Source: Escherichia coli
Lineage (GTDB): Bacteria; Pseudomonadota; Gammaproteobacteria; Enterobacterales; Enterobacteriaceae
NCBI RefSeq assembly: GCF_003334355.1
Contig: NZ_QOWP01000007.1
Direction: 5' to 3' (one strand)
Length of the DNA stretch: 64,000 nt
The notes beneath the pieces were generated by a model. The model made no database searches. It was not told where the DNA came from and was given only the letters and a program-made list of their open reading frames with translations. Made by a program: the position numbers and the translations under genes. Positions 55,383 through 55,476 of this stretch are shown here, piece by piece (within the stretch, counting starts at the first letter, position 1; every line of letters starts with the position of its first letter).

Positions 55383-55398
55383 GATAAAACGTTTTACC
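55383..55398. promoter_or_regulatory. MalI operator, imperfect copy (GATAAAACGTTTTACC)
   Basis: One mismatch from the perfect palindrome at 55461..55476; in the malI/malX divergent region. Confidence 0.6.
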
Positions 55399-55460
55399 TT
55401 TTATTTATCTTATACCCGCTATTATCGTTGCGTAATGTGATTTATACCTCACTAAAATTT

Positions 55461-55476
55461 GATAAAACGTTTTATC
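55461..55476. promoter_or_regulatory. MalI operator, perfect 16-bp palindrome GATAAAACGTTTTATC
   Basis: Exact palindrome 50 bp upstream of malX. Confidence 0.65.

Follow-up and report, generated by a model that had tools for sequence, protein, structure and literature searches.

Two copies of a 16-bp sequence in the divergent malI/malX region of Escherichia coli are almost certainly the operators of MalI, the repressor of the LacI/GalR family encoded directly beside them, with one copy at each of the two promoters. The operators as such are already known, previously characterised and textbook-level. Both sequences and their spacing are conserved across at least 15 enterobacterial genera, and one of them is identical to a MalI site that was used experimentally.

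Results

Two 16-mers between malI and malX

The DNA analysed here (the window) is a stretch of 64,000 nucleotides of Escherichia coli. It contains malI and malX in divergent orientation, separated by a spacer of 174 bp (55353-55526), and both 16-mers are located inside this spacer. The genes and the two operators are the following:

54324..55352, minus strand: malI, LacI/GalR-family repressor, 342 aa (Pfam, NCBIfam, RefSeq annotation)
55527..57119, plus strand: malX, PTS maltose/glucose enzyme IICB, 530 aa (NCBIfam NF007509, RefSeq annotation)
57129..58301, plus strand: malY, PLP-dependent C-S lyase and MalT antagonist, 390 aa (NCBIfam TIGR04350, PatB family C-S lyase; RefSeq)
55383..55398, no strand: malI-proximal MalI operator, GATAAAACGTTTTACC, read from the malI side as GGTAAAACGTTTTATC (sequence and conservation)
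55461..55476, no strand: malX-proximal MalI operator, GATAAAACGTTTTATC (sequence, identity with the published site, and conservation)

Identification of the gene products was based on domain and family models. MalI comprises a LacI HTH domain (PF00356, 1.5e-18) and a Peripla_BP_1 domain (PF00532, 9.4e-108), and reached 669 bits with the NCBIfam model NF007449 for MalI, which has a cut-off of 310. MalX reached 1120 bits with NF007509 (cut-off 665), and MalY, the product of the second gene of the repressed operon malXY, passed the model TIGR04350. A structure of MalI was not found in the PDB. With the 2.9-kb locus as query, 5419 of the 5426 complete E. coli genomes gave a match, and the best matches were 100% identical and carry annotated malI, malX and malY. 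In comparison with E. coli K-12 MG1655 (window position x corresponds to position x + 1,643,828 of NC_000913.3) the only change in the spacer is an SNP at 55446 (A in the window, G in K-12); the operators do not differ. The preliminary description of this DNA, which had assigned the region to the known malI/malX divergent arrangement, was thus confirmed in this respect.

The left end of the window has a different character. The small RNA DicF was detected there in full length at 4073-4124 on the plus strand (Rfam RF00039, 76.7 bits, E = 3.6e-15), which points to sequence of a Qin-type prophage remnant at this end. Strain 510016 has nothing equivalent to the first ~8.9 kb at the matching position, and the remainder of the window matches this strain with 98.8-99.9% identity.

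The two 16-mers are located exactly at the positions given in the preliminary description, GATAAAACGTTTTACC at 55383-55398 and GATAAAACGTTTTATC at 55461-55476, and the latter is, as had been claimed, a perfect 16-bp palindrome. They match in 15 of 16 positions, the single difference being an exchange of T for C at position 15, and their centres are 78 bp apart. A search of the 64-kb window with up to three mismatches revealed no match besides these two (0.31 expected), and the next best matches have four mismatches. With at most one mismatch, the base composition leads to an expectation of 7.7e-4 in 64 kb and of 7e-6 in the 174-bp spacer. A lone perfect palindrome of 16 bp is unremarkable, because the window contains three of them compared with about one in shuffled sequences (maximum 4), which is not clearly above expectation. 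The other two are GCAGGGGATCCCCTGC at 7036-7051 and TCCTCAGCGCTGAGGA at 59354-59369, the second of which falls within the 3' end of add. The non-random signal is one sequence that recurs 78 bp away in a single intergenic region.

Conservation of the operators in Enterobacteriaceae

A set of 80 orthologous loci was collected by a protein search with MalI (69-100% identity), so that the operator played no part in the choice. These loci span at least 15 enterobacterial genera and include Escherichia, Citrobacter, Salmonella arizonae, Klebsiella, Raoultella, Enterobacter, Lelliottia, Leclercia, Kluyvera, Trabulsiella, Pseudescherichia, Pseudocitrobacter, Silvania, Huaxiibacter, Superficieibacter and others. 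Together with the window, 81 spacers with 162 sites were available for comparison. In all 80 loci malX is divergent from malI, and every one of the 80 spacers contains exactly two sites with two or fewer mismatches. Across the 541,682 bp of these loci, 160 such sites were found in the spacers and none elsewhere. The distance between the two operators is 79 bp in 75 of the 81 spacers and 78 bp in the other 6, which comprise the window, four E. coli-like Escherichia loci and a further genome.

When the 80 distinct spacer sequences were aligned, mean column conservation was 0.966 for the malI-proximal and 0.968 for the malX-proximal operator, compared with 0.61-0.72 for the remaining spacer and about 0.85 for the 30 coding bases next to the spacer at either end. 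Among non-overlapping 16-bp windows of the spacer the two operators rank first and second, with the malI-proximal one in second place; the most conserved 16-bp window of all is 55463-55478 (0.998). Other conserved islands are TGTGA, the CAC of the other CRP half, the malX -10 sequence TATCTT, the malI -10 block and the Shine-Dalgarno sequence of malX.

Within the operators, the central CG is invariant in all 162 sites and the inner 12 bp, TAAAACGTTTTA, are changed in just 8 of them. The remaining variation is confined to the symmetric positions 2 and 15, plus position 1 in one site, which leads to the consensus G-R-TAAAACGTTTTA-Y-C. Dyad symmetry, a central CpG and the core AAACGTTT are features of LacI/GalR-type operators, and the adjacent regulator combines a LacI HTH with a sugar-binding core. 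Taken together, the comparison points to strong purifying selection on both operators and on their geometry.

In two loci, L063 (Kluyvera intermedia) and L070 (Enterobacteriaceae), a third sequence, TATAAACCGTATTATC, weakly resembles the operator (three mismatches). It is located between the malI operator and the CRP site, about 29 bp malX-ward of the malI-proximal operator, and is probably a chance match.

Identity with an experimentally used MalI site

That MalI binds to these sequences and represses from them is taken from the literature. In the work of Sellars et al. 2017 from the Busby/Lee laboratory, MalI was developed into a fluorescent reporter-operator system (PMC5543585). In the oligonucleotides D71689/D71690 of that study the sequence labelled 'MalI DNA site' is GATAAAACGTTTTATC (PMC5543585 supplementary file 3), which is letter for letter the sequence at 55461-55476. 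An array of 20 copies of this site recruited MalI::mCherry to foci in vivo, and the target of MalI is described as 16 bp, bound at both the malI and the malX promoter (PMC5543585). Loss-of-function alleles of malI, which were selected in ptsG manX exuT strains, increased malX mRNA 7.4-fold and malY mRNA 6.2-fold (PMC12089948). Reduced lamB expression and reduced lambda infection were reported for malI knockouts (PMC2900299), and the lower lamB expression fits the known link between MalY and MalT. The preliminary description had also proposed that the two sites are placed to repress both malXY and malI; the identity with the published site and the conservation across genera support this proposal.

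Promoter geometry

The positions of the promoters were deduced from coordinates reported by Lloyd, Godfrey & Busby 2010 (FEMS Microbiol Lett 305:28) and Lloyd et al. 2008 (288:250). In Lloyd 2010 the malX operator reportedly covers -24 to -9 relative to the malX start and the malI operator +3 to +18 relative to the malI start, and in Lloyd 2008 CRP is reported to be centred at -41.5 for malX and at -43.5 for malI. Starting from these values, the malX start would therefore be located near 55485, the malI start near 55400 and the centre of CRP at 55443.5, and the distance from start to start would be 85 bp. The position 55443.5 is the exact centre of TGTGA(55436-55440)-N6-CCTCA. Measured in the sequence, the two operator centres are 25 bp (malX) and 53 bp (malI) away from the CRP centre, as the coordinates predict. 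These coordinates are therefore a good fit to the sequence, with start positions that are predicted from them. The corresponding promoter elements are the following:

55433..55454, no strand: putative single shared CRP site, TAATGTGATTTATACCTCACTA (TGTGA at 55436-55440; centre 55443.5; conservation)
55473..55478, plus strand: predicted malX -10 hexamer TATCTT (reported operator coordinates; invariant in all orthologues)
55407..55414, minus strand: predicted malI -10 region, TATAAGAT (TAAGAT/TATAAG) (reported +3 to +18 and -43.5 coordinates)

The hexamer TATCTT at 55473-55478 shares the last 4 bp of the malX-proximal operator and falls at -12..-7 relative to the predicted malX start. At the predicted malI -10 region the spacer alignment contains the conserved block TCTTATAC (0.9-0.99). 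A scan of 55250-55650 for sigma-70 consensus promoters with a 9-of-12 rule gave 0 sites; this result is uninformative, because such a rule misses class II CRP-dependent promoters that have no -35 element.

All 80 distinct spacer sequences share TGTGA and, in the right half of the CRP site, CAC without any change. With an N6 spacer the right half reads CCTCA and agrees with the consensus TCACA in 3 of 5 positions, whereas an N8 reading gives TCACT with 4 of 5; the conserved bases on this side are C-N-CAC-TAAA. The SNP at 55446, where other Escherichia loci also have G, falls in the central spacer of the site, which is its non-contacted centre.

From the CRP centre to the centre of the malX operator the distance is 25 bp in all 81 spacers. 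On the malI side it is 53 bp in the E. coli group and 54 bp otherwise. The shorter distance was found in the window, in the E. coli-like Escherichia loci L002, L003, L004 and L006 and additionally in the unrelated MAG L078; the longer one in E. albertii and 74 other enterobacterial loci. The difference is a lineage-specific deletion of 1 bp between 55399 and 55432 in the E. coli group, and at the malI promoter this deletion would move CRP from about -44.5 to -43.5. The malI -10 region differs between the groups as well, with TATAAGAT in the window and TATAAATA in the other group.

Lloyd et al. 2008 reportedly described one CRP site that is common to the malX and malI promoters. In the 80 loci and the window just one conserved CRP-like site is visible in the spacer. 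Genomic SELEX recovered malI and malX, which were listed as known CRP targets, and Shimada et al. 2011 put malI-malXY among the divergent pairs 'regulated by different CRP molecules' (PMC3105977). The single visible site is at odds with this classification and agrees with the one site reported for Lloyd et al. 2008.

Discussion

Proposed repression by MalI at each promoter

In the simplest view the mechanism is steric repression by a dimer of the LacI/GalR family. One MalI dimer would bind to each dyad-symmetric site G-R-TAAAACGTTTTA-Y-C, and the hinge helices of MalI probably insert at the central CpG, as those of PurR and LacI do. On the malX side, MalI at 55461-55476 would cover the -10 sequence TATCTT of the CRP-dependent malXY promoter; RNA polymerase would therefore be excluded by this overlap and malX-malY shut off. 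On the malI side, MalI at 55383-55398 would be located just downstream of the start and may block initiation or promoter escape, and by this position MalI would limit its own synthesis (negative autoregulation). A single CRP site between the operators would activate both divergent promoters.

In Lloyd, Godfrey & Busby 2010 the malX-proximal site is reported to repress malX and the malI-proximal site to repress malI, with neither needing the other. That each operator would serve its own promoter independently is a refinement of the preliminary description.

Alternative readings of the operator pair

The conserved geometry of three sites may be read in another way. Instead of two independent steric blocks it could reflect a cooperative MalI-CRP-MalI nucleoprotein complex, comparable to the anti-activation by CytR. 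We give this idea a very small chance. If it were true, the loss of 1 bp on the malI side, from 54 to 53 bp, would have retuned the CRP dependence and the autoregulation of malI within the E. coli group.

Cooperation of the two sites in a more general form, either with a MalI tetramer or interacting dimers that loop the 78-bp spacer and trap CRP or RNA polymerase, or with a CytR-like contact to CRP, seems very improbable to us. The near-invariant distance between the operators (79 bp in 75 and 78 bp in 6 spacers) and the CRP site that is always located between them would be compatible with looping, but the fixed distance is explained otherwise, since every operator keeps its place relative to its own core promoter, and a single CRP site fixes the place of both promoters. 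Furthermore, 78-79 bp correspond to 7.4-7.5 turns at 10.5 bp per turn, which would place the two operators on opposite faces of the helix and disfavour a short loop. Residues 5-340 of MalI align to residues 2-325 of the 360 residues of LacI, and because of this MalI is without a counterpart of the C-terminal tetramerisation helix of LacI; the absence of this segment also argues against a tetramer loop. In addition, Lloyd 2010 reportedly found that repression of either promoter does not depend on the other operator.

It is hardly conceivable that some other E. coli paralogue of the LacI/GalR type (RbsR, CytR, GalR/GalS or TreR, for example) is the main protein at the palindromes. MalI is clearly homologous to paralogues of this type, and it is established knowledge that the core AAACGTTT is generic for the family. 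Against such a paralogue, the site accompanies malI in 80 of 80 loci and is absent from the rest of their 7-kb surroundings, an array of the operator recruits MalI::mCherry (PMC5543585), and loss of malI alone derepresses malXY (PMC12089948).

We consider it virtually excluded that the 16-mers are chance AT-rich palindromes or form a hairpin in the malI leader RNA and have no protein-binding role: the malI-proximal copy would be transcribed and could form an A/U-rich hairpin of 7 bp, but the leader folds no better than shuffled sequences (z = -0.69; 46 of 200 equally good), the malX-proximal copy would sit upstream of the predicted malX start, and substitutions of A by G or C at position 2 are uncompensated at position 15, both in the malX-proximal operator, where position 2 is G in 42 of 81 spacers and position 15 is T in all 81, and in the malI-proximal operator, which has 6 variants of the form GCT...ATC. 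The hairpin was rejected on the z value and these uncompensated substitutions, and the chance palindrome on the expectation of 7.7e-4, the two sites in 80 of 80 loci and the 0 sites outside the spacers.

Comparison with other systems

The malX-malI operators of E. coli K-12 are not an analogue but the thing itself, with the same locus and the same sequences; nothing substantive differs, and the SNP at 55446 is the sole change in the spacer. A core of the type AAnCGnTT is typical of operators of the LacI/GalR family. Like the operators of PurR, LacI, GalR and CcpA, the sites have about 16 bp, are dyad-symmetric and contain a central CG flanked by AA/TT, whereas the half-site GATAAAAC is specific to MalI. 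The proteins of the family are dimers with an N-terminal HTH and a hinge helix, and MalI has the same domains; repression through overlap with the core promoter or through a site just past the start is common to these operators as well. Unlike lac, malI-malX has neither an auxiliary distant operator nor a tetramer loop.

The predicted arrangement around the CRP site resembles the synthetic promoter pairs of El-Robh & Busby 2002, with one CRP dimer between back-to-back promoters that would be about 85 bp apart. In contrast to pairs that share only CRP, each mal promoter has its own operator copy for one repressor, and the outcome would be joint activation by CRP combined with independent repression by MalI and autoregulation.

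Meaning for the mal system and the Enterobacteriaceae

The first mention of the MalI operators is credited to Reidl et al. 1989 and Reidl & Boos 1991. They were genetically defined over a decade ago and are already in use experimentally, in the form of the MalI/MalO fluorescent reporter-operator system. The present analysis adds a phylogenetic footprint that spans 80 species, the refined consensus G-R-TAAAACGTTTTA-Y-C and, for the E. coli group, the loss of 1 bp on the malI side. Because no other good site was found in the ~0.5 Mb examined, the comparison suggests that the MalI regulon is local. It also shows the layout with two operators and one CRP site to be ancestral to many Enterobacteriaceae.
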